Assembly: GCA_964522165.1 (NCBI GenBank)
Contig: CAZFVV010000003.1
Location: 6,908 to 70,907, forward strand
Direction of reading: 5' to 3'
Length of the DNA stretch: 64,000 nucleotides
Source: an uncultured Calditrichaceae bacterium
Lineage (GTDB): Bacteria; Calditrichota; Calditrichia; RBG-13-44-9; J075
Below the pieces are notes generated by a model. It did not search any database and was not told the origin of the DNA. It worked only from the letters and a program-made list of their open reading frames with translations. Position numbers and translations under genes: made by a program. Numbering within the stretch: the first letter of the stretch is position 1; the number at the start of each line of letters is the position of its first letter. Positions 3,951 to 60,372 of the stretch are shown here, piece by piece.

Positions 3951-3956
3951 TGAGAA

Positions 3957-7430: not shown

Positions 7431-7453
7431 AAGCCCTGCCGGAGGTTGGCAGG
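7431..7453 (-). terminator. possible rho-independent terminator downstream of the FG-GAP gene (minus strand)
   Basis: gccctgccggaggttggcagggc hairpin; the minus-strand continuation is T-rich (tttgtttt...). Confidence 0.35.
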
Positions 7454-7560
7454 GCGGAATGTAAAAACAGAATTCGCTGCTGCGCACTTTTTGATTTTGC
7501 TACTCAACAAGTGTCATTCCCGAGCAAAAAACAGAATATCGTTTAACACTGCGGGGAAAA

Positions 7561-33493: not shown

Positions 33494-33526
33494 AGACCTC
33501 AAAGGTTTCTAAAACCTTTGAGGTCT
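33494..33526. repeat. REP-like 33-bp perfect palindrome, copy 1 (AGACCTCAAAGGTTT-ctaa-AAACCTTTGAGGTCT)
   Basis: 15-bp perfect stem; starts one base after the methyltransferase stop. Confidence 0.9.
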
Positions 33527-33542
33527 GGACCCGGCGAAGATA

Positions 33543-33575
33543 AGACCTCAAAGGTTTTCAAAACCTTTGAGGTCT
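33543..33575. repeat. REP-like palindrome, copy 2 (preceded by the ccggcgaagata leader also seen at 39385)
   Basis: agacctcaaaggttttcaaaacctttgaggtct. Confidence 0.9.
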
Positions 33576-33596
33576 GAATACCTGGAGCACCCCAAA

Positions 33597-34231
33597 ATGC
33601 AACAACTCGAAAAATTGAAACCGGGAAATTTCTACCATATTTATAACCGCGGCAATAACCGGGAAGACATCTTCTTCGAAGAGAAAAACTACCCCTACTT
33701 TTTAGAACTATACGCCAAACATATAACGCCAGTAGCGGATACATTCGCCTATTGCCTGATGAGAAACCATTTCCACCTATTGGTGAGGATAAAGGCCTCA
33801 AAGGAGATAAAGACCTCAAAGGTTTTGAAAACCTTTGAGGTCTTACCCCCGGGCGAAGAAAAACTTTTTAACTACTCCCAACCATTCTCAAATTTCTTCA
33901 ACGCTTACCAAAAGCGATCAACCGGCAGTATTTCCGTACCGGCAGTTTATTTCAGGCTCGTTTCGGAAGAAATTGGATAGCTTCTCAGGCCATTCTAAAG
34001 CATGTTATTCACTATATTCACCGCAATCCTCAGAAACATGGTTTTGTCACCGATTTTCGGGAGTATCCGCATTCTTCGTATCATACGCTTTTGGCGGATA
34101 AGAATACCAGGCTGAAACGCCGGGAAGTTCTGGAATGGTTTGGAGGCAGGGCGGCGTTTGAGAGGTTCCATATCGAGAACGGCGTTGGAGACGATGATGA
34201 AATACAGAAAATATTTGGCGACGATGAATGA
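33597..34231 (+). pseudogene. IS200/IS605-like Y1 (HUH) transposase, RAYT-like, disrupted
   Basis: MQQLEKLKPGNFYHIYNRGNNREDIFFEEKNYPYFLELYAKHITPVADTFAYCLMRNHFHLLV (HuH motif). A palindrome copy is translated in-frame at 33811-33843. A -1 frameshift at an A-run near 33920 shifts the remainder (AINRQYFRTGSLFQARF...IHYIHRNPQKHGFVTDFREYPHSSYH...) into another frame ending TGA 34229-34231. Confidence 0.65.
33811..33843. repeat. REP-like palindrome, copy 3, inside the transposase reading frame
   Basis: agacctcaaaggttttgaaaacctttgaggtct, preceded by the partial direct repeat aaggcctcaaaggagata. Confidence 0.9.
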
Positions 34232-34238
34232 ATCGAAA

Positions 34239-34271
34239 AGACCTCAAAGGTTTCCGAAACCTTTGAGGTCT
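34239..34271. repeat. REP-like palindrome, copy 4, 25 bp upstream of the DGR target gene
   Basis: agacctcaaaggtttccgaaacctttgaggtct. Confidence 0.9.
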
Positions 34272-34295
34272 ATAGCCTTAAGGAGAGGATGATTT

Positions 34296-37200
34296 ATGAA
34301 CCGCTGGATTAAACTGCTGATCATTATTACCGCCCTGGTGGTTGCCGGGGCCACCACCTCGTATTGGGCTGGGCCGTTAATTCAATTTATCGGGGTGAAC
34401 AGTTCCCTGATCCAGGGAGTTGCCGACGCCGTTCAAACCGTCATCTGGGCAATTGCCGGTATTGTCGCGATTGTAGGATGGATCCGCCGCCCCCGCCCGG
34501 CGCCCTCAGCCGCCTCGCCCGCGCCGCGCGAAGCTCCCATGGAGCTGGAAGCCGAAAACGGTTCGCTGGTTAATACCGGCGAAATCAAAGACAGCACAAT
34601 CGTAACCGGAAAGGAGGCCCGGGTAGTGCATACCGGAACCTATATCGAGAAAGTGGAAACGCAAATCATCAAGGGCGCGCCCAACGTCGATCCCAAAACC
34701 CTGCGCGTCGCCTACCTCAACCGCTTGTTGTACTTCACCCGCGAGCTGTCCCTGGCCGGAATCGATCCCCAGGCGGCCAGCGAGCCGACCGCCGCGCTCA
34801 AATTAGACGCCGTTTATACCGCCCTCCGCACCATGACCCCGGAGGACCAGGAACGCCTGGAGCAGGGCAAAAAAATGGATCGAGAGACCCGCTATCTCTC
34901 CGCGCTGGAACAGTTGAACCGCCGCCAATACCTGGTATTGTTAGGCGACCCCGGCAGCGGCAAAAGCACCTTTGTCAATTTTGTAGCCCTGTGCTTAACC
35001 GGGGAGGGGCTGGGGATGCCGGATGCCAATCTAACTCTCCTTACCGCCCCGTTGCCGGATGAAGAAAAAAAGGAAAAAGAAGCCCCCCGGCCCCAGCCCT
35101 GGAACCACGGGGCGCTGCTGCCGGTGCGGGTGATTTTGCGCGACTTTGCCGCCCGGGGATTGCCGCGTAGCGGCCAAAAAGCCACCGCCGGGCACCTCTG
35201 GAACTTCATCCGCGCGGAGTTAAAAGCCCTCTCGCTTGAAAATTACGCCGATCATCTGCAACAAGAGTTGCTCGATAAAGGCGGGCTAATCTTGCTCGAC
35301 GGGCTGGATGAGGTGCCGGAAGCGCAGCAGCGCCGCATTCAGATCAAACAGGCGGTGGAAGAATTCAAAGCGGTTTACCGTAAATGCCGCATTCTCATCA
35401 CCAGCCGCACCTACGCCTACCAGAAACAGGATTGGCGGCTGCCGGAGTTCCAGGAAACCATCCTGGCGCCCTTTAGCCACGGGCAAATCGAGGCGTTCGT
35501 GGAACACTGGTACGAACACGTGGGGAGCCTGCGGGGATGGCCGGAAGATAAGTACCGCGGCGGGGCGGCGCTGCTCAAACGCGCCATTTCGGGCAGCCAG
35601 CGGTTAGGGGAGCTGGCCGGGCGTCCGCTGTTGCTGACCTTAATGGCCAGCCTGCACGCCTGGCGGGGCGGAACTCTCCCGGAAAAACGCGAAGAACTCT
35701 ACGCCAACGCGGTGGACCTGCTGTTAGACTGGTGGGAAAAACCCAAAATCGTGCGCGACGCGCAAGGCGCGCCGGTGGTCTTGCAGCCCAGCCTTTCGGA
35801 GTGGCTCAACCTGGGCCGCCAGAAAGTGCGCGACCTGCTCAACGAGCTGGCCTATACCGCCCACGCCGCCCAGCCGGAATTGCAGGGCACCGCGGATATT
35901 CCCGAAAGCAAACTGGTGGAAGGCCTCCTGAAGCTCTCCGGCAATCCGGATCTGAAACCGCAGCGGCTGGTGGAATACCTGAGCCAGCGCGCCGGGCTGC
36001 TGCTGCCCCGCGGGGTGGAAGTCTATACCTTTCCCCACCGCACCTTTCAGGAGTACCTGGCGGCCTGTTATTTGACCGACCACGATTTTCCCGATGCGGT
36101 GGCGGAACTGGCCGGCAACGACCCCAATCGCTGGCGGGAAGTGGCGCTGTTAGCCGCCGCCAAAGCCGCCCGCGGCTCCGCTTCCACCATTTGGGGGTTT
36201 ATCGAGGCGTTATGTTACCGCGACTGCGACAATGCCTCCCCCGCGGCAAAGGCGCTGTGGGGCGCGCACCTGGCCGGGCAGGCCCTGCTGGAAATTGTGG
36301 ATACTTCTAAAATCAGCGAACGGAATCAGCCCAAGGTAGAGCGGGTCAAAACCTGGCTGGTTCACCTGCTCTCCCGGGCGGATTTCCCGGCGCTGGAGCG
36401 CGCCGAGGCCGGGCGCAATCTTGCCCGCTTAGGCGACCCCCGCCGGGAAGCGCTGGAAGTTGACGCCCTGCAATTTTGCTGCGTGCCCGCCGGCCCCTTC
36501 TGGATGGGCAGCGAGGAAGCTGACCGGGAAAAGCCCCTGCATTTAAATGAACAGTTGGATAAACCCTGCTGGATTTCTAAATTTCCCATTACCAACGCCC
36601 AGTACCGCCGGTTCGTGGAAGACGGCGGGTATGGGCAGGAAGGGTACTGGCGGGAAGCAAAGGCGGCAAAGGTGTGGCAGGGGGGAAAGATAAAAGCCTG
36701 GAATGACGATACCCCGCGCGAAGCCCCGTTCGATTTCGGCGCGCCTTTCCACCTTCCCAACCACCCGGTGGTGGGAATTACCTGGTACGAAGCCCTGGCC
36801 TTTACCCGCTGGCTGACCGGGCGCTGGCAAAAAAGGGGCTGGCTGCCCCGGGGCGGGATCGTGCGCCTCCCCTCGGAAGCGGAGTGGGAAAAAGCCGCCC
36901 GCGGGGGAGAGAAAATTCCTTCCGCGCCGGTCGTTCGTTCTGTTCAAGAATGGTCAATTGCCAATTGGCAATTCACAATTGGCAATTGGCAATTAAAAAA
37001 TAATCAACGCCGCTATCCCTGGGGCGACGAACCCGATCCCAACCGCGCCAATTACGCCGATACCGGCATCGGCAGTCCCAGCGCGGTGGGCTGCTTTCCC
37101 GCAGAAGAACGCAGGGGCGATTCGCGAATCGCCCCTGCATACGGATGTGAGGAGATGAGCGGGAACGTATGGGAGTGGTGCCAGACCCAATGGCGGGGAA

Positions 37201-37382
37201 ATTACCAAAAACCGGCGAATGAATCGCTGGAGGGGACGTCAGCCCGTGTTGTTCGCGGCGGCGCGTTCGGCAGCCCCGACGGCAGCGTGCGGTGCGCGTA
37301 TCGCATCTACGTCGTTCCCGATTCTCGTAACTACTACCTCGGGTTTCGTGTGTCGCTGTTCCCATTTACCTCTGGTCTCTGA
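34296..37382 (+). CDS. DGR target protein: N-terminal 2-TM segment, NACHT (STAND) NTPase, helical region, C-terminal FGE-sulfatase/C-type-lectin-fold domain carrying the variable repeat
   Basis: 1028 aa; TM helices in residues ~5-60; Walker A LLGDPGSGKSTF; NACHT Walker B LILLDGLDEV; C-terminal FGE-sulfatase family motifs (HPVVGITWYEALAFTRWL, RLPSEAEWEKAARGG, RRYPWGDE, GNVWEWC, RVVRGGAF); the VR occupies the last ~40 codons. Confidence 0.85.
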   Translation: MNRWIKLLIIITALVVAGATTSYWAGPLIQFIGVNSSLIQGVADAVQTVIWAIAGIVAIVGWIRRPRPAPSAASPAPREAPMELEAENGSLVNTGEIKDSTIVTGKEARVVHTGTYIEKVETQIIKGAPNVDPKTLRVAYLNRLLYFTRELSLAGIDPQAASEPTAALKLDAVYTALRTMTPEDQERLEQGKKMDRETRYLSALEQLNRRQYLVLLGDPGSGKSTFVNFVALCLTGEGLGMPDANLTLLTAPLPDEEKKEKEAPRPQPWNHGALLPVRVILRDFAARGLPRSGQKATAGHLWNFIRAELKALSLENYADHLQQELLDKGGLILLDGLDEVPEAQQRRIQIKQAVEEFKAVYRKCRILITSRTYAYQKQDWRLPEFQETILAPFSHGQIEAFVEHWYEHVGSLRGWPEDKYRGGAALLKRAISGSQRLGELAGRPLLLTLMASLHAWRGGTLPEKREELYANAVDLLLDWWEKPKIVRDAQGAPVVLQPSLSEWLNLGRQKVRDLLNELAYTAHAAQPELQGTADIPESKLVEGLLKLSGNPDLKPQRLVEYLSQRAGLLLPRGVEVYTFPHRTFQEYLAACYLTDHDFPDAVAELAGNDPNRWREVALLAAAKAARGSASTIWGFIEALCYRDCDNASPAAKALWGAHLAGQALLEIVDTSKISERNQPKVERVKTWLVHLLSRADFPALERAEAGRNLARLGDPRREALEVDALQFCCVPAGPFWMGSEEADREKPLHLNEQLDKPCWISKFPITNAQYRRFVEDGGYGQEGYWREAKAAKVWQGGKIKAWNDDTPREAPFDFGAPFHLPNHPVVGITWYEALAFTRWLTGRWQKRGWLPRGGIVRLPSEAEWEKAARGGEKIPSAPVVRSVQEWSIANWQFTIGNWQLKNNQRRYPWGDEPDPNRANYADTGIGSPSAVGCFPAEERRGDSRIAPAYGCEEMSGNVWEWCQTQWRGNYQKPANESLEGTSARVVRGGAFGSPDGSVRCAYRIYVVPDSRNYYLGFRVSLFPFTSGL
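36954..36993. repeat. in-frame AT-rich CAATTG-based repeat inserted within the FGE/CLec domain coding sequence
   Basis: caattgccaattggcaattcacaattggcaattggcaatt encodes ...WSIANWQFTIGNWQLKNN... between the conserved RGG and RRYPWGDE motifs; local GC is far below that of the gene. Confidence 0.6.
37241..37361 (+). repeat. DGR variable repeat (VR) at the 3' end of the target gene
   Basis: 121 bp aligns without gaps to 37886-38006; 18 mismatches, 17 of them at positions where the TR has adenine. Confidence 0.85.
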
Positions 37383-37410
37383 AATCTCTGAACTCTGAAA
37401 CTCTGGAAGA

Positions 37411-37460
37411 TTTCATCCCGATTTGCATCCAGGGATGGATGCGTTTTTGTCGGGATGAAA
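37411..37460. other. nested stem-loop (cruciform-prone) about 30 bp downstream of the target gene stop
   Basis: tttcatcccga-ttt-[gcatcc a ggg a tggatgc]-gtttttg-tcgggatgaaa; flanked by direct repeats gaaactctg (37397 and 37457). Confidence 0.55.
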
Positions 37461-37482
37461 CTCTGAAAAAGGAAAAATTTTT

Positions 37483-37827
37483 ATGGCCCAACCCGAGATG
37501 CCTATTTTTGTTCGTACCTTTGATTTTCTAAGCTGGCTGCTGCCGGCAACCAACCATTTTCCCCGGGCGCACCGGCATTCGTTTACTCAACGCCTGTTGG
37601 ACGCCGGGTTCGATTTACGGGAGCATTTGGAGGAAGCCAATCTGCGCAAAGGAAAAGAGAGGTTAGAGCGATTAACCAGCGCCGATGCAGCGTTAGCCAA
37701 AGTACGATTGTATTTGCGCCTGGCGGTTAAGTGGGGATGGTTTTCCCAGGGACAATACGAACACGTCTCCCGCATGGTGGTGGAGATCGGGCGCCTCCTG
37801 GGCGGTTGGAAGAAAGTAACGGTTTAA
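37483..37827 (+). CDS. avd: Avd-like DGR accessory variability determinant (four-helix-bundle protein, 23S rRNA-IVS protein family)
   Basis: 114 aa, basic, all-helical; FDFLSWLLPATNHFPRAHRHSFTQRLLDAGFDLREHLEEAN resembles the four-helix-bundle (Avd) family; lies between target gene and TR as in canonical DGRs. Confidence 0.65.
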   Translation: MAQPEMPIFVRTFDFLSWLLPATNHFPRAHRHSFTQRLLDAGFDLREHLEEANLRKGKERLERLTSADAALAKVRLYLRLAVKWGWFSQGQYEHVSRMVVEIGRLLGGWKKVTV

Positions 37828-37832
37828 GTTTA

Positions 37833-37865
37833 AGACCTCAAAGGTTTCAAAAACCTTTGAGGTCT
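37833..37865. repeat. REP-like palindrome, copy 5, between avd and TR
   Basis: agacctcaaaggtttcaaaaacctttgaggtct. Confidence 0.9.
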
Positions 37866-37885
37866 TAAGGGGCAGGCTCATACGC

Positions 37886-38006
37886 AGCCCGTGTTGTTCG
37901 CGGCGGCGCGTTCAACAACACCGACAACAACGTGCGGTGCGCGTATCGCAACAACAACGATCCCGATAATCGTAACAACAACATCGGGTTTCGTGTGGCG
38001 CTGTTC
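37886..38006 (+). repeat. DGR template repeat (TR)
   Basis: Non-coding copy of the target 3' end, rich in AAC triplets (aacaacaccgacaacaac...cgcaacaacaacgatcccgataatcgtaacaacaacatc); the adenines are the sites that differ in the VR. Confidence 0.85.
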
Positions 38007-38047
38007 ACGTTTTTCAAAGGGTAAAGGCCTCAAACGACAATGGATAA

Positions 38048-38080
38048 AGACCTCAAAGGTTTCCGAAACCTTTGAGGTCT
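38048..38080. repeat. REP-like palindrome, copy 6, 42 bp downstream of the TR
   Basis: agacctcaaaggtttccgaaacctttgaggtct; preceded by ggcctcaaacga...ataa as at 33791. Confidence 0.9.
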
Positions 38081-38272
38081 AACTTCCGAAGGTTTTTACG
38101 TTGCTGGAAATGCCCGGCGCGCTGGAAATGAGTGGTCGGGGTTCCGGGCCGAAGCGAAAAATGGCCGAGCCTGTTCCGGGCCTTTCCCGGGCTTCCCCGG
38201 GAAAGGGCAAATAACAACCCTCCCGCCTCCTGCCCTATAAGGGGTTGAGGCGGGAGATTTTTATAGCCGAAA

Positions 38273-39307
38273 ATGTTTGACGCATTAATTTCATGGGATA
38301 ATCTTTACCTGGCGTATAAAAAAGCCGGCAAAGGCAAACGCGGGCAGATCGATGTGGCGGATTTTGAGTATGCTCTGGAAGAAAACCTGCTGCGGCTGCA
38401 AGAAGAATTGCGGGATCAGACTTATGCACCGGGTGGTTACCACAGTTTTTACATCCACGAACCCAAACGGCGATTGATCAGCGCTGCGCCGTTCCGTGAC
38501 CGGGTGGTTCACCATGCCCTGTGTAATCTCACTGAACCTGTATTCGAGCAGAGTTTTATTTTTGATTCTTACGCCAATCGGGTGGGAAAAGGAACTCACC
38601 ACGCTTTGGATCGCTGCCAGCAATACGCCCGGCATTACCCCTATGTGCTGCAATGCGACCTGCGGCAGTTTTTTCCCAGTATCGACCATGCGATTTTGCG
38701 CCAAATCTTAATGCGGAAAATCGCTGAACCTGCAGTATTATGGTTGATCGATCAAATTCTCCGCAGCGGCGAGGGCGTATTAAGCGAGGCATACGCAATG
38801 GTCTATTTTCCCGGGGATGATTTGTTCGCCGCCAACCGCCCGCGCGGTTTGCCAATCGGCAATCTGACCAGCCAGTTTTGGGCCAATGTTTATCTCAATC
38901 CCTTTGACCATTTCGTCAAACGAGAGTTACGCTGCAAAGCCTACCTGCGTTACGTGGATGACTTTTTGCTTTTCGGGGAAGACAAAGCCACATTATGGCG
39001 CTGGAAAAAGGCCATTACCAAACGCCTGGAACAGTATCGATTGACAATTCATCCGACGGCTCATCCCCGCCCGGTAGAGGAAGGGATACCGTTTTTAGGA
39101 TTCATCGTCTTCCGGGAAAAGCGACGCTTGAAACGCAGGAAAGGAATTTTTTACCGCAGAAAACTGAAATGCCTGATTTCAGACTACCATTCCGGCGATC
39201 TACCCCTGGAAAAAATTAAGCAGAGCGTGCAGGGATGGATTAACCACACCCGTTACGCTAATACCATCGGGCTGCGCAAAAGCCTGTTAGGAAAAATGAA
39301 AATATAA
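38273..39307 (+). CDS. DGR-type reverse transcriptase
   Basis: 344 aa; RT motifs 1-2 RLISAAPFRDRVVHHAL; motif A LQCDLRQFFPSIDH; DGR-diagnostic motif LPIGNLTSQFWANVYLNPFD (IGxxxSQ); motif C YLRYVDDFLLFG (YVDD); no maturase or endonuclease domains. Confidence 0.9.
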   Translation: MFDALISWDNLYLAYKKAGKGKRGQIDVADFEYALEENLLRLQEELRDQTYAPGGYHSFYIHEPKRRLISAAPFRDRVVHHALCNLTEPVFEQSFIFDSYANRVGKGTHHALDRCQQYARHYPYVLQCDLRQFFPSIDHAILRQILMRKIAEPAVLWLIDQILRSGEGVLSEAYAMVYFPGDDLFAANRPRGLPIGNLTSQFWANVYLNPFDHFVKRELRCKAYLRYVDDFLLFGEDKATLWRWKKAITKRLEQYRLTIHPTAHPRPVEEGIPFLGFIVFREKRRLKRRKGIFYRRKLKCLISDYHSGDLPLEKIKQSVQGWINHTRYANTIGLRKSLLGKMKI

Positions 39308-39323
39308 TAATTCCAAAGGTTGA

Positions 39324-39380
39324 AGACCTCAAAGGTTTCTCCCGTAAGGGATGGCTTACGCCACAAAACCTTTAAGGTCT
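39324..39380. repeat. REP-like palindrome, copy 7 (split; 24-bp insertion in the loop, one stem mismatch)
   Basis: agacctcaaaggttt-ctcccgtaagggatggcttacgccac-aaaacctttaaggtct. Confidence 0.7.
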
Positions 39381-39396
39381 AAATCCGGCGAAGATA

Positions 39397-39429
39397 AGAC
39401 CTCAAAGGTTTCAAAAACCTTTGAGGTCT
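39397..39429. repeat. REP-like palindrome, copy 8, 22 bp upstream of the next gene
   Basis: agacctcaaaggtttcaaaaacctttgaggtct, preceded by ccggcgaagata as in copy 2. Confidence 0.9.
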
Positions 39430-39451
39430 CTTAATAGGAAAGGATCATTCC

Positions 39452-43823: not shown

Positions 43824-45314
43824 TCACGGCAAAAGTACCATTTTTCGGGCTTGAACGGATTTCGCACTTTCTTCTGAGCGGGATTTAACCTCCAGGCGGT
43901 AGAGATACACCCCGCCGGCCGCCGGTTTCCCGTTCTCATCCCGGCCGTCCCACTGCGCCTGGTGCAAACCGGCCGGGAGCTGGCCGGCTAACAGCATTCT
44001 GACTTTCTGTCCCAGGATATTGAAAACGGCCAACTCCACCTCGCTGGCGCCCGAGATCTGAAAGCTGATTGCCGTAGTCGGGTTGAAGGGATTGGGATAA
44101 TTAGGATACAAAATGGCCGATTGCGGCGGCGCTGCGCCCCAATCTCCCAGGCCGGCCGGCGAACCTTCGAAATCCGCTCCCAGGTCGGTGGTGGGGCCGG
44201 AGCGGGGCTCCTGGTCTATATCCAGCTCCGGCACGCCGGCATTGGCCGCCGGCCCGGCCCCGGCGTGGGTAAAAATAATTCCTGCTTTGAGGTGATAATC
44301 GTTGTTGGGTGCGTTCACAAAAATTGCTTCCACTGGAGTAGCGCCGCTGTACCAGGGGGATTGATTGGAGTTCCGGGGAGCCTGCACCAGCGCATGGCCG
44401 GGTTGGTCGGAGCTGTTGTAGTCGGAATCCGTGGTAAAAATGCCCCCGTCGCTGGCGAGGTAGGGTTCCTCCGAGGCCTCCCGGGAAATATTGTTCACCG
44501 CCCGGATCACGCTGCCGTCGCTCAGGATCGCGTTCTTCCAGCCGATAAAGGTGTTGTTGAATACATTTACCTCTCCGCCGTATTTGACCAGAACCCCTTT
44601 CGAGCCGGTACCTTTGATGATGCAATTGAAAATATCCGCGTCGGATTTCAGGTCGATGCCGTAGCCGGTATCCGAGGTGAGGTCCATCCACATGAAGCAG
44701 TTTTTCACCACCAGGTAGCCGCCTTCCTCCGGATCGATCACGTCGTTGCTGTTCCCGCTGCCCCAGATGCGCATCTGCAGACCGTCGATGACCATGTAAT
44801 CGATCTCCACGTCGATACATTCGGAATTGACCGTGGTGTACTCGATCACCCGGTAGCGGGTTTCGTCCCAGCGGGCGGTGGCGCGATGGCCCTCATCAGC
44901 CATTACCACCACATAGTGCTCCGGGTCGGTTACCCAGTCGTAAAACTGCGCCGGGCCGTCCGGAGAGCCGTTGCTGCTGCGGCACAGCGCCACGGCGATC
45001 TCGTTGGCGCTCACGATGTCGCGTTTTTCATTCTGGGCAAAATCGTCTAAGGAAGTATAATCCGTTCCGGGGCCGTTATCGGGGTCGATGATTTTAATGA
45101 CCACGGTGGGGCCGTCGGGGGACTGCCCCCCGGCCACAGGGGAAATCCGCAATCCCTGGCCGTAAATATCCGGGAAGGTGAAAAATGGGGATTGGCCATG
45201 CAGCAGCGCCGAAAATGCGAATATCCAGAAGCAGGTTAACATCCGCGGGAGCATCCCGCGATTCATCCGGTTGAAATCATTGCGGCAATCCATGCCGTTT
45301 CCTCTCGTTTTCAA
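43824..45314 (-). CDS. right-handed beta-helix repeat protein with T9SS C-terminal sorting domain
   Basis: 496 aa (start may be an internal Met); beta-helix rungs; C-terminus ILYPNYPNPFNPTTAISF...VYLYRLEV...KMVLLP. Confidence 0.6.
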   Translation of the reverse strand: MKTRGNGMDCRNDFNRMNRGMLPRMLTCFWIFAFSALLHGQSPFFTFPDIYGQGLRISPVAGGQSPDGPTVVIKIIDPDNGPGTDYTSLDDFAQNEKRDIVSANEIAVALCRSSNGSPDGPAQFYDWVTDPEHYVVVMADEGHRATARWDETRYRVIEYTTVNSECIDVEIDYMVIDGLQMRIWGSGNSNDVIDPEEGGYLVVKNCFMWMDLTSDTGYGIDLKSDADIFNCIIKGTGSKGVLVKYGGEVNVFNNTFIGWKNAILSDGSVIRAVNNISREASEEPYLASDGGIFTTDSDYNSSDQPGHALVQAPRNSNQSPWYSGATPVEAIFVNAPNNDYHLKAGIIFTHAGAGPAANAGVPELDIDQEPRSGPTTDLGADFEGSPAGLGDWGAAPPQSAILYPNYPNPFNPTTAISFQISGASEVELAVFNILGQKVRMLLAGQLPAGLHQAQWDGRDENGKPAAGGVYLYRLEVKSRSEESAKSVQARKMVLLP

Positions 45315-45355
45315 AAATTGTCGAAAAAATCACGCCAAACTTGAAGGTGCGAATC

Positions 45356-47044
45356 TCAGCGCAGCAGGTGCATCCGGCGGGTCTGGGTAAAATCTCCGAT
45401 TTCTATGCGATAAAAATAGATTCCGCTGGCCGCCGCTCTTCCCGCGGCGTCGCGCCCGTCCCATTCCACCCGGTGCTGCCCGGCGGGAAGATATTCCTCA
45501 ACCAGGGCGCGAAGCTTATTGCCCAGGATGTCGAATATCTCCAATCGAACCGCTCCTGGCCGGGAGGTATCGAAAACAATGGCGGTGGAGGGGTTAAAAG
45601 GGTTGGGGTAGTTGGGATGCAAATAAAACTCCCGGATTTCATTGCCGGCCTGGGGCGCAACCGGGGTAGAGCTTTCATATTCGAAAGCCCCCACGTCGTA
45701 ATTGCCCGCCAAACGGGGGTAGCCGTCGTAATCATGGGTTACTTCCGGAATATCCTCCCCCGCGTTAATTGCCGGGCTATTGGCGCTCAGGTGGTAATTA
45801 AACGCGCCGGCGTTTATGAAAAACGAAGCGTCGGCGGATAAATTGCTGGGATGGGATGCGTCGCCTGGCTTAGTTCCCATGAACAGGCAGTTTCGCAGAT
45901 CGAATCCCGCAGAATTATAACCCCCGGAAACGTTCTGGAAATACTCCCCGCTGCCGCCCTTATCAAAAGTACTGTTATAGACGTGCAGGATTTCTACCCC
46001 GTCTTCATTGCGGAACGCTTTGTCGTTGTTATAAACAATGCTGTTAATAATGGTCACGTAAGCGCCCCCGCGGCTGCCCGGCCCGCGCAGGCGGAAGGCG
46101 ATTTCGTTGTCATAAACTTTCACCGCGATCAGTTGGCATTCCACTTTTTCTTTGATGTTGAACGCCGCCCGGTTGTTGATGTAGCCGGGTACGAAGCCGT
46201 AGGATTCCACGTTGCGAATGGTAATGCGGGCGCGGTAGGCGGTTCCCACCGCCTCTTCGTTGATTTTGGTATCCACCCCGTTCTCCCCGGGGATTTCCCC
46301 GGCGTTCCAGCCCGCGGCGTTGGCCGGCAGCGGCCCGGTCCACAGTTTGCAATTTTCGATCAGCACGTTGTCCCACAACGGGTAGCCCCGGTCCGGGTCG
46401 GTCTGGAAACAGTCCCCGGAAACGTAATAAATGTTGCACCCGCGAACAGTCAGGTTATTCTCTCCCGCGGCCACGATGCCGTGCGCATCCACCTGGTTGC
46501 TGATGGAACCGGCCAGGAAGTGGTGAATTTCGCAATTTTCGATCAACACGTCATCGGCCATGCTGAGGTCGATGCCGTCTTTGGTGCCGTTTTTGATCTC
46601 GCAATTGCGCACAATCGCGTTGTCGCCGCCGGAGCGAATTCGCACCACGTCGGCGTTGCCGAACTGCCCGTCGATAATGAATCCGTCGATGATATGATAA
46701 GCGTGATTCAGGTAGAGCACCTGCCCGGCATTAGTTACCAGCGGGCGGTTGGCCGGATCGTATGCTTTGACGGTGATGGGCTGGGCAACGGTCCCGTCCC
46801 GCTGGCTGGTAATCTGGTCCGCATACACCCCGGGGAGCACCAGCACCACGTCGCCGGGCTGGGCGGCGTCCATGGCCGAGCTGAAATTGTTAAAGGGGCT
46901 GGAAAAGGTTCCGTTCCCGTTGGCGGGCACATCATCGAGGTAATATTCCGCGGCGCTCAAGCACGCCGCACATCCCATAATCAGCAAAACAAAACCGACC
47001 GGTAAAATCTTAGCCATCCTTGCGCTCCTTATTTTCGTCTTCAT
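45356..47044 (-). CDS. right-handed beta-helix (pectate-lyase-fold) protein with T9SS C-terminal sorting domain
   Basis: 562 aa; signal peptide; repeated NCxIxN/GxxxxNNxF rungs; C-terminus HPNYPNPFNPSTAIVF...IYFYRIEI...RMHLLR. Confidence 0.6.
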   Translation of the reverse strand: MKTKIRSARMAKILPVGFVLLIMGCAACLSAAEYYLDDVPANGNGTFSSPFNNFSSAMDAAQPGDVVLVLPGVYADQITSQRDGTVAQPITVKAYDPANRPLVTNAGQVLYLNHAYHIIDGFIIDGQFGNADVVRIRSGGDNAIVRNCEIKNGTKDGIDLSMADDVLIENCEIHHFLAGSISNQVDAHGIVAAGENNLTVRGCNIYYVSGDCFQTDPDRGYPLWDNVLIENCKLWTGPLPANAAGWNAGEIPGENGVDTKINEEAVGTAYRARITIRNVESYGFVPGYINNRAAFNIKEKVECQLIAVKVYDNEIAFRLRGPGSRGGAYVTIINSIVYNNDKAFRNEDGVEILHVYNSTFDKGGSGEYFQNVSGGYNSAGFDLRNCLFMGTKPGDASHPSNLSADASFFINAGAFNYHLSANSPAINAGEDIPEVTHDYDGYPRLAGNYDVGAFEYESSTPVAPQAGNEIREFYLHPNYPNPFNPSTAIVFDTSRPGAVRLEIFDILGNKLRALVEEYLPAGQHRVEWDGRDAAGRAAASGIYFYRIEIGDFTQTRRMHLLR

Positions 47045-52755: not shown

Positions 52756-53043
52756 AACGCTTAGAATGCTGCGTGATGCGTGAACCGTGAAACGTGAGAG
52801 TTCATCATCGCCAGTATTTACGGGTCCCGCATCCCGCAACACCTTTCTCGCTGCACGCCCGGATAGGCCTGCTTATCCGCGTCCTCTTACTATTTTCATT
52901 ACATTGCCTTCCCGCAACCCTCCCGTCGCCCAACCTTAGTGATCCTATCACCTTTCTTTAACCGCTTTGTAATATTTCTCCCCTAAACTGTCTTGCCTGA
53001 TTTAATACAGTCAAACAATTTTCACTTATTACGGGAGAAAAAA

Positions 53044-56000
53044 ATGAAACGAACCCTGTACCAGGCGAATGCCAGACTCCGAGAACGGGGACGTTGGCGG
53101 CTTTCCGATGTTAGAATGCCCGTAACGCTCTTCTCGATCCTGTTTACACTCCTTGCCAGCTTTTTACCGAACGCTCTTCCGGCCCAGGACCTTGCTCCCG
53201 GGCGGGTGCTCGGGAAATTAGTGGACGCCGAATCCGGCGATCCCCTGATCGGCGCAAACGTGCTGCTGGAGGGCACTACCCTGGGCGCGTCATCGGACCT
53301 GGACGGGGCTTTTATTATTATGGATGCGCCCCCGGCAGTTTACACCGTGGTGGTCATGTATGTCGGTTACTCGGAAACCCGGGTAGAAAACGTGAAAGTG
53401 CTGCCGGGGCAGGCGGTCAAGCTGGATCTTTCGATCAAACCGGAGGTGATCGAATCCGAAGCGGTGGTGGTGGAAGCCACCTTGATGAAGGATACCGAAG
53501 CTTCCCTGCTGAAAAAGCGCCAGAAATCCGTGGCCATCAGCGACGCCATCAGCGCCGAGGCGATTACCCGCTCCGGCAGCGGCAACGCCGCGGAGGCAAT
53601 GTCCCAGGTGACCGGCGCTTCCGTGGTGGATGGGAAATACGTCTATATCCGGGGACTGGGGGAGCGCTACAGCGCCACCATGCTGAACGGCGCGGAGCTT
53701 CCCAGCGCCGACCCGGAGAAAAAAGCGGTGCAGATGGACCTGTTCCCTTCCAACCTGCTGGATAACATCGTAACCGTCAAAACCTTTACCCCGGATAAAC
53801 CGGGCAACTTTACCGGGGGAATGGTGGACGTGAGCACCAAATCCTACCCGGAAAAACGCACCTTCAAATTGTCCGCCGGTTCGGCTTACAACACCCGGGC
53901 CAGCCTGAATTCCGGGTATCTCACCTATGCCGGCAGCACCTCGGACTGGCGAGGCGTGGATGACGGCCTGCGGGCGCTGCCTGCGGAGCTTCAGCAAAGC
54001 CCTGCCCCGCCCAATGGCGCCAGCAGCACCACCCGGAAAAACCCGGAGCTGGCCAACCAATTAGACCAGGCCAGCAAAGCATTCGCGCCGGTGATGGCGC
54101 CCTCTGCCGGGAAATCCGCCCTCGACGGCTCGCTCTCCCTTTCCCTGGGAGACCAGGCCAGCCTGTTCGGCCGCCCCTTCGGATACCTGGCCAGTTTTTC
54201 TTATAATCACAGCTATTCGTATTATAATGAAGGGCAGACCGGGAGATGGAAGTTAGGAACCAGCGTATCCGATACCGACTCCCTGACCTCGCAAGTGACT
54301 CTGAAAGATGAGAAGGGCAGCGATGAAGTGCTCTGGGGCGGCTTGCTCACCGCGTCTTCCAAAATTCACCCCAACCATGAAATCGGTTTCAACTTTTTAT
54401 ATACCCGCTCCGGGGAATCGACTTCCCGTTACTTATTGGGCAACTGGCCGGAGCAATTCGGGGCGGACGCCACCAATACCTTCTTCGAGACCCGGGCGCT
54501 GGGTTGGGTAGAACGGAACCTGCAATCCTACCAGTTGTCCGGGGAGCACTATTTCAGCGGTTTATTGGGGATGAAGATCGACTGGCGCGGCGCCCTCACC
54601 CAAAACACCCAGGATGAGCCGGACATCCGCTACTTTTCCGATCACTATTCGATTCGCAACGTCGCCGGAACCGATCGCGATACGGTATTGTACTCCATCA
54701 CCCCTTCCAATTATCCCCAGCCGGCCCGTTACTTTCGCAATCTGGAAGAAGACGGCCAAAACGGGGCGGTGAACCTGGAAGTTCCCTTCAAAAACTGGAA
54801 CAGTATCGCCGGCAAATTCAAAATCGGGGGATTTTATAGCGAAAAAAACCGGGATTTTGAAGAAACCCGCTATGAATACCAGCGCCCTCCTAACATCCGC
54901 TATAGCGGGGATTCGGAGGCGTTCTTTGCGGCTGAAAACATGGGCATCATCGGTTACGACAGCACCCGCAACGAATACATTTTTGGGAACTACATCCAGT
55001 TGTCGCCCGATCCCCGGGGCGGCAACTACGCGGGAGCGGAGCGGATTTCCGCCGCCTACGGGATGGTCGAAATCCCCTTGCTGCAACGGCTGCGCTTCAT
55101 CGGCGGGGCGCGCTTCGAGGCTACCCGCATGGAAGTATCCAGCCCCAATACCAGCCTGCCGGACAGCCTGCGAAAAGGTGAGTTAACGGGGAATGACTGG
55201 CTGCCTTCGCTGAATTTTATTTACCTGCTTTCCCGGGACATGAACCTGCGCCTGGCTTACGGCCGCACCCTGGCCCGCCCCACCCTGCGGGAAATGGCCC
55301 CCTATTCCAGCTTTGAATTCGTGAATGATTACCAGTTTACCGGCAATGTGAACTTGGAAAGAAGCCTGATCGATAACTTCGACGTACGCTGGGAATGGTT
55401 CGACCGCGCCGGGGAAATTTACGCCGTCAGCGTTTTTTACAAACAGTTCAAAAACCCCATCGAACGCACCATCATCGCCGAGAGCAGCGCCGATAACCCG
55501 GAAGTTACTTACGCGAACGTGGATAAGGGCGCCGTTATCGGGGTGGAAATCGAAACCCGTAAAAAACTGGATATTGTCCATCCCTGGCTGGCGAATTTCC
55601 GCTTAGGGTTCAACCTGGCGGTGGTGAACTCCCGGGTGGATATACCGGCGGAAAAGTTAGACCAGATCCGCCAGGTTGACCCGGGCAGGAGCGAATTCAC
55701 AGAGAATACCCGCCCACTGCAAGGCCAGTCTCCCTACCTGCTCAACCTGAGCCTGGCTTATGATAATTTCACAACCGGCACCACCGCAGACCTCCACTAT
55801 AACGCTTTTGGGGATCGCCTGGCGGAAGTGACCAGCAACGCGACCCCGGACGTTTACGAAAAATCGCGCAGCAGCCTGAATTTTACCCTGGGCCAGCGGA
55901 TATTAGGCGGTTTGAGCATGAACATCCGGGCGATGAACCTGCTCGACGCCGCGATACGCTTTACCCACGAATACAAAGGTGTCGAATACGTCCGCCGGGA

Positions 56001-56049
56001 ATACAAAACCGGGCGCCGGTTTTCGTTCGGCTTCAGTTATGAATTGTAA
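53044..56049 (+). CDS. TonB-dependent receptor, SusC/RagA-like (carboxypeptidase-regulatory-like N-domain, plug, beta-barrel)
   Basis: ATG at 53044 preferred over the TTG-extended ORF; signal peptide; LGKLVDAESGDPLIGANVLLEGTTLGASSDLDGAFII (CarbopepD_reg); plug; C-terminal barrel ending RFSFGFSYEL. Confidence 0.8.
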   Translation: MKRTLYQANARLRERGRWRLSDVRMPVTLFSILFTLLASFLPNALPAQDLAPGRVLGKLVDAESGDPLIGANVLLEGTTLGASSDLDGAFIIMDAPPAVYTVVVMYVGYSETRVENVKVLPGQAVKLDLSIKPEVIESEAVVVEATLMKDTEASLLKKRQKSVAISDAISAEAITRSGSGNAAEAMSQVTGASVVDGKYVYIRGLGERYSATMLNGAELPSADPEKKAVQMDLFPSNLLDNIVTVKTFTPDKPGNFTGGMVDVSTKSYPEKRTFKLSAGSAYNTRASLNSGYLTYAGSTSDWRGVDDGLRALPAELQQSPAPPNGASSTTRKNPELANQLDQASKAFAPVMAPSAGKSALDGSLSLSLGDQASLFGRPFGYLASFSYNHSYSYYNEGQTGRWKLGTSVSDTDSLTSQVTLKDEKGSDEVLWGGLLTASSKIHPNHEIGFNFLYTRSGESTSRYLLGNWPEQFGADATNTFFETRALGWVERNLQSYQLSGEHYFSGLLGMKIDWRGALTQNTQDEPDIRYFSDHYSIRNVAGTDRDTVLYSITPSNYPQPARYFRNLEEDGQNGAVNLEVPFKNWNSIAGKFKIGGFYSEKNRDFEETRYEYQRPPNIRYSGDSEAFFAAENMGIIGYDSTRNEYIFGNYIQLSPDPRGGNYAGAERISAAYGMVEIPLLQRLRFIGGARFEATRMEVSSPNTSLPDSLRKGELTGNDWLPSLNFIYLLSRDMNLRLAYGRTLARPTLREMAPYSSFEFVNDYQFTGNVNLERSLIDNFDVRWEWFDRAGEIYAVSVFYKQFKNPIERTIIAESSADNPEVTYANVDKGAVIGVEIETRKKLDIVHPWLANFRLGFNLAVVNSRVDIPAEKLDQIRQVDPGRSEFTENTRPLQGQSPYLLNLSLAYDNFTTGTTADLHYNAFGDRLAEVTSNATPDVYEKSRSSLNFTLGQRILGGLSMNIRAMNLLDAAIRFTHEYKGVEYVRREYKTGRRFSFGFSYEL

Positions 56050-56121
56050 TCTCAGGGTTCAAGTGTTCATGTGTTTGCGTGGTTTGGGCGCTGATACTCG
56101 GTGCTTGATGCTTGACAGGTA

Positions 56122-56170
56122 CTCAAAACTCAAAACTCGAAACTCAAAACTCAAAACTCGAAACTCAAAA
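56122..56170. repeat. 7-bp tandem repeat x7 (CTCAAAA/CTCGAAA; 21-bp higher-order period) 32 bp upstream of a T9SS cargo gene
   Basis: ctcaaaactcaaaactcgaaactcaaaactcaaaactcgaaactcaaaa. Confidence 0.8.
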
Positions 56171-56201
56171 CTAAGATCATAAACTAACCATAGGAGGTTC
56201 T

Positions 56202-59186: not shown

Positions 59187-59525
59187 AATCCGGAAGATTT
59201 TATCTCCCGATGGGGGTAGAAACCCGGTAAAATTGCTCAATAAATGCGCCAGTTTGAAATTCTCCCGTAACAAACGGAGGCGGCGTTTCCTCAGGAAGCG
59301 CCGCCTCTGGTGTTTTGAGGCCCGCCCATACCGGCGTAAGGCGTACTTCGCGCGGCCATCAAATGCGTATTTCACCGCTGCCGGGCTGCTTCTTCTTCCC
59401 CCGGGTAATTTTTTTTGCGAAAAACCCTCCGATTGGTTAATTTCACGCAAACAATGGTCCCCCTTAATAGAGAGCGGGCGTTGTTGAGAATTTTAGCACC
59501 GGTAGCCATTACGAAGGAGTGAACC

Positions 59526-60152
59526 ATGAAAATGCGCAACGTGTTATGGACCTGGGCGTTCCTGGCCGGGGGTTTCCTGGCCGCGCAGGATAAGTGGGAC
59601 CTGGATAAAGCCCATTCTTCGGTCAGCTTCGAAGCGGAGCATATCGTGATGCTCCAGGAAGCGCAGGAAAATGAGGGAGAATTTCTCCTGGGAGCCACCC
59701 ACGGCGCCTTCAAGGATTTTGATATCACCTTTACCCAGGGGCGCAGCGATTTCTCCGATAGCCGGGTGGAAGCGGTCATCCGGGTGAACAGCATCGACAC
59801 CGGGCATGAATTGCGCGACGGGCATTTGAAATCGGAAAGCTTCTTTTACATGAATAAGTACCCCGTGATCGTTTTCAAAAGCGATTCCTTCGAGAAAACC
59901 GGGGAAAACACCTTCAAAATCAGCGGCGACCTGACCATGCGAGGGGTCACCAAGCCGGTCGAGATGATTGCCACGCTCACCGGGGAGCCGGTAGAGCGGT
60001 CCGGTTACCAGTTCATCTCGATCACCGCAACCGGGAAATTGAACCGTTACGATTACGGCCTGCGCTGGAACGAGGTGATGGAAACCGGGGGATTCCGCAT
60101 CTCCAACTATATTAAATTCTCCATCCAGGGGAATTTTATGAAGAAGAAATAG
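59526..60152 (+). CDS. YceI-family periplasmic polyisoprenoid-binding protein
   Basis: 208 aa; signal peptide; YceI-like beta-barrel signature (WDLDKAHSSVSFEAEH...GATHGAFKDFDI...). Confidence 0.75.
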   Translation: MKMRNVLWTWAFLAGGFLAAQDKWDLDKAHSSVSFEAEHIVMLQEAQENEGEFLLGATHGAFKDFDITFTQGRSDFSDSRVEAVIRVNSIDTGHELRDGHLKSESFFYMNKYPVIVFKSDSFEKTGENTFKISGDLTMRGVTKPVEMIATLTGEPVERSGYQFISITATGKLNRYDYGLRWNEVMETGGFRISNYIKFSIQGNFMKKK

Positions 60153-60218
60153 GAAGGGTCATCCGCATTCCCGGGGTGCAAAACTGAAGCTTTACACCCC
60201 GGCCGGGTCTAAAAACCG

Positions 60219-60251
60219 CAACCCCGGCTGCGTTCATGCAGCCGGGGTTGC
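60219..60251 (-). terminator. stem-loop terminator between convergent genes (serves the minus-strand cargo gene)
   Basis: aaccccggctgc-gttcat-gcagccggggtt; the minus-strand continuation is GCGGTTTTTAG. Confidence 0.5.
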
Positions 60252-60372
60252 TTCAGGCATTCTCCCCGTCCCACCGAAAGATGTTTACGGATGAAGCGTA
60301 AAAGGTAATTTCACGCATCACGTTTTCGCATTACGGAACACGGAATGCGTATTTCGTATTGCGTATTCCGTT

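Follow-up and report, generated by a model that had tools for sequence, protein, structure and literature searches.

A single-target chromosomal DGR has diversified the lectin-fold tip of a predicted membrane-tethered, NLR-like NACHT ATPase

NACHT/STAND proteins with lectin-fold sensors are already published, and so is the diversification of these sensors by DGRs (2020-2024). DGRs of clade 5D, for example DGR3 of Thiohalocapsa PB-PSB1 and those of filamentous Chloroflexi, diversify NACHT or nSTAND1-CLec targets in multicellular bacteria, and TM-bearing NACHT-CLec targets were described in 2024 (Doré et al., PNAS, PMC10907252). According to that work, experiments have so far characterised none of the STAND-associated CLec sensors and no NACHT-CLec protein. 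Bacterial NACHT/STAND architectures are further known to include FGS/FGE-sulfatase sensors and TM segments (Kibby et al., 10.1101/2022.07.19.500537; PMC13581612). The role proposed for the class is that of a programmable pattern-recognition receptor (PMC10907252; PMC7159879; Kibby et al.).

The window analysed here (the whole stretch of DNA, 64,000 nucleotides, to which all positions refer) holds a complete chromosomal DGR with a single target, in the order target-avd-TR-RT. The host is probably a member of the Calditrichota, a detail that we record as new; this phylum is absent from the text-format supplementary files of PMC10907252. As in clade 5D of Doré et al., the DGR is cellular, and its target combines a central NACHT with a C-terminal CLec/FGE domain that bears the VR. 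Some of their targets carry TM segments and many have uncharacterised N-terminal extensions, a place held here by a TM hairpin. The resemblance to clade 5D is one of target architecture and of Chloroflexi relatives (the closest proteins, 58-61% identical to the target, are mostly from that phylum). The differences are a single target instead of the usual two, the lack of a neighbouring peptidase or adaptor gene, and REP-like elements within the cassette. With bNACHT (Kibby et al.) and Avs (PMC13581612) the target shares the succession of an N-terminal module, a NACHT NTPase and a C-terminal 'antigen-receptor-type' sensor, but its sensor is somatically diversifiable and it matches no defence HMM above threshold. 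Characterised defence models gave no significant match (the 33 bits of NCBIfam EruA, on the P-loop only, compare with a cut-off of 1000), and PADLOC returned weak PtuA matches for the target, at the level of the P-loop only.

Among DGR variable proteins of FGE-type CLec fold, structures are known for the phage tail-fibre receptor-binding protein Mtd (Bordetella phage BPP-1), the surface lipoprotein TvpA (Treponema denticola) and TaqVP (Thermus aquaticus). With these the target has in common a VR at the extreme C-terminus, the RGG...RC.R...P...GFR framework of the FGE-subtype CLec fold, and AAC-rich TR codons that avoid stops; unlike in Mtd and TvpA, however, the CLec domain is here predicted to serve as a cytoplasmic sensor arm within an ATPase of 1028 aa.

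That this protein is a DGR target had been claimed in the first-pass annotation, and the TR/VR pair, Avd and RT bear it out. The VR, recognised by its pairing with the TR, spans 128 nt on the forward strand (37240-37367) and ends 15 nt before the last base of the stop codon; its mutable codons cover aa 992-1015, and its last ~29 nt (37339-37367) form a putative IMH. In the TR (37885-38012, forward strand) a 113-nt core, whose 29 adenines belong mostly to AAC codons, is followed by a presumed IMH* end. The two differ at 20 positions, 17 of them within the 113-nt core, where every mismatch falls on a TR adenine (17/29) at codon position 1 or 2 and none of the 84 non-A bases is changed in the VR. 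The probability that 17/17 mismatches would land on adenines by chance is 8e-13. The remaining three differences, which are not of the A type, cluster in the last 15 nt, the presumed IMH/IMH* zone. Because the VR core departs from the TR at adenines only, retrohoming with adenine mutagenesis must have rewritten 13 codons of the lectin tip at least once. Some ~10^16 protein variants can be reached in this way, and no stop codon can.

Avd (114 aa, 37483-37827, forward strand) matches Pfam bAvd with 66 bits and NCBIfam DivGenRetAVD with 89.9 bits (cut-off 80). The intact reverse transcriptase (344 aa, 38273-39307, forward strand), which starts 260 nt past the TR, is recognised by Pfam RVT_1, by PADLOC (RT, 1.5e-47) and by its IGNLTSQ and YVDD motifs. 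Judged by its sequence, the locus is a DGR: an A-specific TR/VR pair with Avd and an adjacent DGR-type RT. Between TR and RT lies a structured spacer (38095-38272, forward strand) with the motifs GGAAATGCC, CCGAAG..GAAAAATGGC and GGGCAAATAACA; it is conserved in an alignment of four loci, contains hairpins at 38181-38206 and 38220-38256, and is presumed to be part of the DGR RNA. The RNA fold z-score is -10.4 for 37828-38275, a stretch that includes two REP-like palindromes. Past the VR and the stop codon, an inverted repeat on the forward strand (37411-37460) forms a nested hairpin with an 11-bp outer and an 8-bp inner stem (DNA fold z-score -2.6). A GC-rich hairpin stands at the matching position in three related loci (L014, L015 and L002). 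The one here is a candidate DGR homing hairpin or terminator. A search for homologues beside DGR RTs, advised in the first-pass annotation, found four other loci (L002, L014, L015 and L004) with cis TRs whose mismatches occur at A only, target-bAvd-RVT_1 synteny in related loci, and, in the syntenic locus L002, an RT 64% identical to the present one. By these sequence comparisons the NACHT-lectin family is a recurrent DGR target.

The target gene (34296-37382, forward strand) codes for 1028 aa arranged as a TM hairpin, a linker, a NACHT NTPase, a helical arm and an FGE-type C-type-lectin domain. A strong Shine-Dalgarno sequence, AAGGAGAGGA, read directly from the DNA at 34280-34289 (forward strand), lies 7 nt 5' of the ATG, which speaks for a genuine start at 34296 and hence for the TM N-terminus. 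An identical protein exists in public data (P0001). The AlphaFold2 model of the target has a pLDDT of 83.4 and a pTM of 0.77. The linker (aa 66-132, 34491-34691, forward strand), rich in Pro/Ala and in Gly/Thr, is modelled with low confidence (pLDDT below 50 across aa 65-127), and its length and sequence differ among relatives. Taken as a whole the protein is a bacterial NLR-like NACHT ATPase with a hypervariable lectin-fold tip, predicted to be tethered to the membrane. This is the architecture that had been read earlier from the letters alone, and Pfam on the one hand, AlphaFold2 and Foldseek on the other, both support its NACHT and lectin domains.

The central part (aa 133-720, 34692-36455, forward strand) was delineated by Pfam, Foldseek and motifs as a NACHT NTPase that includes helical and winged-helix domains, followed by a C-terminal HEAT-like helical arm that corresponds to the helical region expected after NACHT. 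Pfam places NACHT at aa 212-407 with 38.3 bits (cut-off 26.7) and also matches NPHP3_N. The two motifs named at the outset are in place on the forward strand: Walker A, GDPGSGKST, at aa 217-225 (34944-34970) and Walker B, LILLDGLDEV, at aa 331-340 (35286-35315). Across 82 relatives GxPGSGK, DGxDE, R371 and H581 are invariant. The motifs to which the last two belong, the NACHT-typical TSR sensor-1 at aa 369-371 and, for the winged helix, FPHRTFQEYLAA at aa 579-590, are as wholes invariant or nearly so. Pfam score and motifs thus assign the protein to the NACHT clade of STAND NTPases. Foldseek aligns the model over ~600-650 columns with NLRC4, NOD2, NLRP3 and NLRP9 (E 2e-11 to 4e-10), and the predicted structure has the NBD-HD1-WHD-HD2 fold of animal NLRs.

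The C-terminal domain (aa 726-1022, 36471-37361, forward strand), a putative ligand-binding sensor, has an FGE-subtype C-type-lectin fold according to Pfam, PDB sequence matches and Foldseek. Pfam finds FGE-sulfatase at aa 729-1019 with an E-value of 5e-43, the PDB matches are EgtB, OvsA, FGE and TvpA (the last, 2y3c, matched directly by sequence at E 2e-4), and Foldseek retrieves FGE, EgtB and ToxD with E ~1e-12, with target-normalised TM-scores of 0.56-0.67 against FGE and ToxD. The VR stands at the C-terminus of this fold, as had been announced for an FGE-fold domain. The insertion mentioned at the outset is real, and there are two: a loop of hypervariable sequence (about aa 876-902) and an insert of 8 aa (937-944). 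Among 81 homologues the VR codons are the hypervariable positions (3.16 vs 1.67 bits, p 1.8e-6); they tolerate nearly any residue and are flanked by invariant framework residues. In this alignment they behave as a putative exposed binding surface would, and variable residues are solvent-exposed in every solved CLec DGR protein (PMC6328139).

Since enzymes of the FGE/EgtB/OvoA type are the top matches in both sequence and fold, one might see in this domain a working member of that family, and in the whole protein a regulated modifying enzyme instead of a binding sensor. We find this hardly credible. A true FGE was rejected: C1000 is the sole Cys in aa 970-1028, so that the copper-binding CxxxxC pair (catalytic C336/C341 in human) is absent, and the hypermutated codons overlap the FGE catalytic region, a coincidence described for TaqVP (PMC6328139). 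The first-pass annotation had likewise doubted a real FGE and seen no sulfatase partner, and none was found among the scanned window ORFs of at least 200 aa. An EgtB/OvoA/SenA-type synthase was also rejected. Every NCBIfam enzyme equivalog stays far under its cut-off (91 vs 360 and 79 vs 420 bits), the alignment to such synthases is limited to the FGE-like half, and the DinB iron-binding domain of EgtB is absent from the target (Pfam) and from the scanned window ORFs of at least 200 aa.

At the other end, aa 1-65 (34296-34490, forward strand) form a two-helix TM hairpin, as judged from hydropathy, AlphaFold2 helices and conservation. The two TM helices of the first reading are well marked: their KD hydropathy is 1.85 and 2.09, their Hessa sums are +0.5 and +1.2 kcal/mol, the model has long helices at aa 2-31 and 36-63, and 14/14 relatives keep the hairpin with a positive-inside pattern that predicts an N-in/C-in topology. 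The hairpin matches no Pfam family, SLATT included. A profile made from it matches 245 representatives, nearly always from residue 1, in proteins where it is fused to NACHT-FGE, NB-ARC-TPR or nSTAND5-HEAT. W24, PLL, F31, N35, IQG and Q47 are conserved, and the polar N35, Q40 and Q47 are so over 143 representatives clustered at 50% identity. Paralogous family members have zinc-ribbon, DUF4062 or helical modules at the same N-terminal position. By its sequence distribution the hairpin is a conserved unnamed module, which we record as a new detail, and because it heads several different STAND clades it appears to behave like an NLR effector module. The first reading saw no signal peptide, yet TM1 begins with n/h features of the signal-peptide kind, carries AGA at aa 17-19, and may be cleaved off as such a peptide.

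In the resistosome of the plant CC-NLR ZAR1 and in fungal HeLo/HET-S, NLR oligomerisation joins N-terminal helices and the membrane is permeabilised. SLATT is a 2TM pore-forming effector domain (Kaur et al.). The TM hairpin may, by analogy, work like these executioner modules, with the difference that its helices are predicted to be constitutively inserted in the membrane and that pore formation is hypothetical. A scenario can be outlined from this. The two helices would anchor the protein in the inner membrane, N- and C-terminus both on the inner side, which, following the topology rules, would leave the NACHT ATPase in the cytoplasm and the variable lectin domain with it. There the lectin tip would bind a foreign molecule, from a phage or another invader; binding would lift autoinhibition and permit nucleotide exchange and NACHT oligomerisation, which would in turn gather the N-terminal modules, all of this by analogy with NLRs, Avs and bNACHT. 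In the most speculative step, the clustered hairpins would permeabilise the membrane and cause abortive infection. The hairpins are proposed as effector because there is no enzymatic effector, adaptor or partner protease and because they head unrelated STAND clades. The whole, a membrane-tethered NLR-like sensor retargetable by its DGR, with clustered TM hairpins as effector, is the explanation that we consider best and somewhat probable. The DGR would then let the lineage re-aim its sensor while the signalling chassis stays unchanged.

To be sure, the effector role, which modular distribution and conservation suggest, is something that the hairpin could fill, and a simple anchor is also possible. 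The sensor would then sit at the inner membrane face, meeting phage components for instance, with its output passing through an unlinked or unknown partner or consisting in sequestration of the ligand. Two hydrophobic helices flanked by basic residues do look like a simple anchor, effectors of the class are often separate proteases recruited via adaptor domains (PMC10907252, PMC7159879), and Kaur et al. suggest that FGS domains work by direct binding, without enzymatic targeting. However, a plain anchor need not keep N35, Q40 and Q47 across so many representatives, nor would it be expected to shuffle as a unit among NACHT, NB-ARC and nSTAND5 chassis, and within ~10 kb there is neither an adaptor domain nor a protease or TIR gene. 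We therefore regard an anchor without effector function as possible, if on balance doubtful.

The surroundings bear on the purpose of the sensor. None of the neighbours suggests a defence island; the flanks code for a glycosyltransferase, a methyltransferase, a DsbH-like thioredoxin and a DUF2927 protein. A chromosomal site among housekeeping and two-component genes would suit a diversified receptor outside immunity, reading environmental or self ligands, serving kin recognition, or tuning regulation as proposed for cyanobacterial DGR targets. This is unlikely in our view: the bacterial NACHT/STAND proteins of sensor-NTPase-effector type that have been tested are reported as anti-phage sensors (Kibby et al.; PMC13581612), and open-ended variation is easier to understand in an arms race than in the sensing of a physiological ligand that stays fixed.

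Whether such a putative immune sensor is still being re-aimed depends on the state of the cassette, which REP-like palindromes have invaded on both flanks of the TR, a further new detail. One (37830-37868) lies between avd and the TR, 2 nt past the avd stop, and is missing from related loci. Directly 3' of the TR, a ~75-nt insertion (38013-38094), in which a complete REP-like palindrome (38048-38080) and a half-site occur, is missing from related loci in the spacer alignment and present in the contig of a related strain (L008). Such insertions, which part the TR from its conserved spacer, may have disrupted the DGR RNA, leaving a relic that diversified its VR in the past, lost retrohoming and has a fixed specificity. 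Two metagenome scans (JGI contigs) revealed no VR variants, hence no population-level sign of present activity; the sole other assembly of the exact gene, a Logan contig (L007), has an identical VR. We deem a relic rather unlikely nevertheless. RT, Avd and TR are intact, the AAC-rich design of the TR is retained and the motifs of the TR-RT spacer are kept, while a self-contained REP hairpin may be tolerated. The data scanned for variants are sparse, and in one contig of a related strain the assembly jumps from VR into TR, a chimera that is often an effect of heterogeneous VRs.

REP-like palindromes extend beyond the cassette. Two more stand closely 3' of the RT (39324-39431), and four lie upstream of the target (33494-33528, 33543-33577, 33811-33845 and 34239-34273), around a frameshifted, REP-interrupted pseudogene of a RAYT/IS200-like Y1 transposase (~33594-34230; Y1_Tnp 22 bits vs a cut-off of 23).

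A complete diversity-generating retroelement (DGR) has mutagenised the lectin-domain tip of a NACHT protein. The 3' end of the target gene carries a variable repeat (VR, 37240-37367) which recurs as a direct repeat of 128 nt, the intergenic template repeat (TR, 37885-38012), 645 nt downstream. Over a core of 113 nt, VR and TR disagree at 17 positions; each is an adenine in the TR, which has 29 there, and the 84 bases of other kinds all match. The chance of finding all 17 changes on adenines is about 8e-13, and all 17 fall at codon positions 1 or 2. Three additional differences are grouped within the final 15 nt, where the putative IMH of the VR and IMH* of the TR would be expected to differ. 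The TR uses codons of the AAC, AAT, GAC and ATC types, so that its 17 mutable codons give access to about 10^16-10^16.5 proteins and to no stop codon. The accessory gene avd (37483-37827; NCBIfam DivGenRetAVD, 89.9 bits versus a cut-off of 80) sits between VR and TR, and the TR is followed by a reverse transcriptase gene (RT, 38273-39307; 344 aa, with IGNLTSQ and YVDD motifs). Together with the adenine-restricted core, these adjacent genes bear out the DGR diversification that a first-pass annotation had read from the sequence. The cassette (target, avd, TR and RT) spans about 5.1 kb and has one target, no second VR being found on either strand of the 64-kb window. A phage origin of the RT was rejected, as it has no relatives in IMG/VR. 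It is doubtful that the DGR is a mere relic, the RT being intact. A point in favour of a relic is that JGI metagenome contigs, scanned with two degenerate patterns, one combining the upstream anchor with the VR carrying N at TR-A sites, the other the VR 3' half with the VR-specific end, returned no VR variants.

The target itself (34296-37382, + strand, 1028 aa) is the longest ORF of its neighbourhood. Its hydrophobic N-terminus belongs to the protein, since AAGGAGAGGA can be read from the sequence 7 nt before the ATG. By Pfam, aa 212-407 form a NACHT domain (38.3 bits versus a gathering threshold of 26.7), with NPHP3_N also above its cut-off, and aa 729-1019 an FGE-sulfatase domain (E 5e-43). 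Both the Walker A and the Walker B strings quoted in the first-pass annotation are present; a TSR sensor-1, as is typical of NACHT, and the winged-helix motif FPHRTFQEYLAA vary little or not at all among 82 aligned relatives. With these relatives as input alignment, AlphaFold2 produced a confident full-length model (pLDDT 83.4, pTM 0.77), and Foldseek against the PDB matched its central part to NLRC4, NOD2, NLRP3 and NLRP9 (E 2e-11 to 4e-10 over ~600-650 alignment columns) and its C-terminal domain to FGE, EgtB, OvsA and ToxD (E about 1e-12). Sequence profiles and modelled fold thus agree on the proposed NACHT NTPase with a C-terminal FGE-fold domain, and it is this domain that bears the VR. 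That it might be a true enzyme, as its fold neighbours could suggest, is extremely improbable, in line with the original doubt that it is a real formylglycine-generating enzyme: the Cys pair is absent, enzyme-family scores are far under cut-off and the window's ORFs of at least 200 aa that were scanned include no sulfatase.

The N-terminus begins with two hydropathic segments (aa ~5-25 and 45-63), modelled as long helices (aa 2-31 and 36-63) preceding a linker disordered up to aa 127. Conserved in 14 relatives, these segments support the two transmembrane (TM) helices initially proposed. In all 14, the helices carry basic residues on their cytoplasmic flanks (MKRW... and ...RRxKK) and the loop connecting them is neutral to acidic on balance, which predicts an N-in/C-in topology and a cytoplasmic location of the NACHT and lectin domains, a placement that fits an NTPase. 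The first helix could instead be a cleaved signal peptide, a reading to which AGA at aa 17-19 lends itself; even so, the C-terminal domains would stay cytoplasmic. The target family exchanges its N-terminal module: a zinc-ribbon, DUF4062, PF22734 or long helical module takes the place of the hairpin elsewhere in the family. An exhaustive HMM search of 1.84 billion proteins with the TM hairpin profile gave 245 representatives, in which the match begins at residue 1 with few exceptions (a word-indexed profile search gave two fragments and was uninformative). The long TM-hairpin proteins scanned are STAND proteins of differing clades with differing sensors, their architectures being NACHT-FGE, HATPase_c_4-NACHT-FGE, HATPase_c_4-NB-ARC-TPR and nSTAND5-HEAT. 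Among 143 representatives the conserved hairpin residues are W24, PLL, F31, G33, N35, IQG39-41, Q47 and LW50-51, and the hairpin matches no family in Pfam. From this distribution we infer that it behaves less as a generic anchor than as an effector or adaptor module at the N-terminus of NLR-type proteins. A 266-aa protein of the representative library, P0249, joins the hairpin directly to a C-terminal FGE-sulfatase/C-type-lectin (CLec) fragment, with no NTPase; it may be a minimal DGR target anchored in the membrane, or else a chimera produced in assembly.

These features lend themselves to a mechanism that we moderately favour. The target would be membrane-tethered, its sensor facing the cytoplasm; binding of a foreign ligand by the variable lectin tip would lead the NACHT domain to oligomerise, and, in a more speculative step, the clustered TM hairpins would damage the membrane. 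The hairpin would then be a previously unnamed, mobile, pore-forming executioner module common to NACHT, NB-ARC and nSTAND5 proteins, a reading that we consider less likely than not. Were it correct, the 5.1-kb cassette would be a complete, self-contained immune device, in which a resistosome-like NLR kills via its own membrane helices while the adjacent retroelement can re-randomise the recognition tip among about 10^16 variants; a compact bacterial system in Calditrichota would then unite two features, diversification of a receptor in adaptive style and an innate death switch of the NLR type. A possible alternative, if not a probable one, is that the hairpin is an anchor only and that output passes through some other effector. 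Genes for proteases, TIR proteins or adaptor domains, and known defence genes, are missing within about 10 kb. It is rather unlikely that the target is a non-immune receptor.

The target family is very large, with more than 3,278 matches at E <1e-10; of the 120 listed, almost every one has both NACHT and FGE-sulfatase domains, and the best non-identical relatives among the matches listed have 58-61% identity. The first-pass annotation had suggested looking for homologues adjoining DGR RTs. Among nine loci with enough flank, the window included, five have a cis TR with mismatches at adenines and share the target, bAvd, RT synteny; in the other four no RT was found within the flank. Beside the 17/17 core mismatches of the window, mismatches at adenines number 11/12 in L002, 20/20 in L014, 19/19 in L015 and 19/19 of the substitutions in L004, which has three gap columns in addition. 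In 81 homologues, the mutable codons are the most variable positions, with a mean entropy of 3.16 bits versus 1.67 in the remainder of the lectin domain (p 1.8e-6), and they lie among the invariant residues R987-G988-G989, R999-C1000, R1003, P1008 and G1016-F1017-R1018. Solved DGR lectin-fold proteins, in which variable residues are solvent-exposed, display the same pattern of variable positions between invariant framework residues (PMC6328139).

Conservation extends to non-coding parts of the cassette. A nested hairpin (37411-37460) lies ~30 nt past the target stop codon, and GC-rich hairpins occupy the equivalent position in three related loci. In the spacer between TR and RT, the blocks GGAAATGCC, CCGAGG..GAAAAATGGCG and GGGCAAATAACA and a terminal hairpin are conserved across four loci (window 38095-38272; L014 8100-8332; L002 11305-11521; L015 9663-9850), all from different assemblies, two being unclassified metagenome contigs. 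No Rfam family matches the spacer at gathering threshold, and Rfam and tRNA scans of the whole window found nothing; the spacer is a candidate structural element of the DGR RNA.

Several related contigs deserve separate mention. In L015, a locus of the TM subfamily, a second DGR target (3637-5451) with a TatA_B_E-like N-terminus and an FGE-sulfatase domain lies upstream of the NACHT target, its 3' end being 89% identical to the VR region of the latter. In L005, a homologue from a Chloroflexia MAG (182-2768) is broken over several frames, through either pseudogenisation or long-read indel errors. Contig L008 (Logan SRR30932925), from a related strain, has a target gene 93% identical to that of the window. 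Its protein P0121, a 90%-identity cluster mate, was discarded as an instance of an unmutated VR, as L008 continues into TR-specific downstream sequence, palindrome included. This contig is an assembly chimera running from VR straight into TR and TR-downstream sequence, so that the predicted C-terminus of P0121 is the 'germline', NN-rich translation of the TR and gives no evidence either way on VR mutation. Artefacts of this type could mislead VR analyses.

The cassette of the window has also been invaded by short repeats. A 35-nt palindrome (AGACCTCAAAGGTTT...AAACCTTTGAGGTCT) has eight copies in 64 kb, every one within 33494-39431 (33494, 33543, 33811, 34239, 37833, 38048, 39324/39369 and 39397). 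They separate every functional unit of the DGR cassette and bracket the TR, one lying 2 nt past the avd stop codon and another within a ~75-nt insertion that parts the TR from the conserved spacer; this insertion is missing from related loci and is found also in L008. Immediately upstream of the target, at 33594-34230, is a frameshifted, REP-interrupted pseudogene of a RAYT/IS200-like Y1 transposase, with an HUH-like NHFHLLV motif and YIHRNP (Pfam Y1_Tnp, 22 bits versus a cut-off of 23). Because copies flank this pseudogene and one interrupts it, we regard the palindromes as REP-like. A role as DGR-functional hairpins around the TR was rejected: the palindromes are missing from related DGR loci, share sequence with the copies flanking the pseudogene and, when the conserved spacer is taken as reference, stand out as insertions. 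A conserved linkage with Y1 transposases was likewise set aside, the Y1_Tnp genes abutting the target homologues of L013 and L016 being only ~20% identical to the pseudogene.

To be sure, systems of this kind have already been described. NACHT proteins with FGS 'antigen-receptor-type' C-termini have been catalogued (Kibby et al., bioRxiv 10.1101/2022.07.19.500537), STANDs with FGE-sulfatase sensors are known (PMC13581612), and FGS domains of NTP-dependent conflict systems have been tied to DGRs (Kaur et al., PMC7159879). The present locus matches the description of DGR RT clade 5D, whose targets combine NACHT or nSTAND1 with CLec, some with TM segments and many with uncharacterised N-terminal extensions; filamentous Chloroflexi are basal within the clade, and its targets were put forward, stressed as a hypothesis, as diversified antigen sensors (Doré et al., 2024, PMC10907252). 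Reading the target as a programmable sensor is thus the standard hypothesis for the class, and our analysis supports it. Calditrichota are not among the hosts in the text-format supplementary files of that study (PMC10907252). The locus makes three modest additions: a Calditrichota host, a TM module that is both conserved and mobile, and a cassette invaded by REPs. It has been proposed that NLR-like sensors diversified by DGRs give bacteria a form of adaptive immunity via receptor diversification, and this unusually compact, complete example, with its putative effector built in, requires neither a separate protease nor an adaptor, which makes it convenient to clone and test. The class now extends to a probable host in Calditrichota, a phylum not known for multicellularity; this bears on the claim that DGRs of this class are specific to multicellular bacteria.

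The window is chromosomal (GltX, Ddl, UvrD, Tgt, two-component systems). The named relatives of its Tgt come from Calditrichota without exception (60-74% identity), and the window codes for several proteins with T9SS C-terminal sorting domains, beta-helix/FlgD_ig proteins and a SusC-like TonB receptor (4956-9450, 43824-47044, 52993-63957), so that the host is probably a member of Calditrichota and not of Chloroflexi, as the target's relatives would imply. Chloroflexi (Anaerolineales, Ardenticatenaceae, Ca. Amarolinea) make up most of the named members among the target matches listed, Scalindua and KSB1 supplying some others, and this difference from Tgt suggests that the target spread by horizontal transfer. 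Among all loci examined, the sole defence-like neighbour is a HicB/HicA toxin-antitoxin pair in L014 (3544-4033), directly upstream of a TM-NACHT-CLec DGR target.
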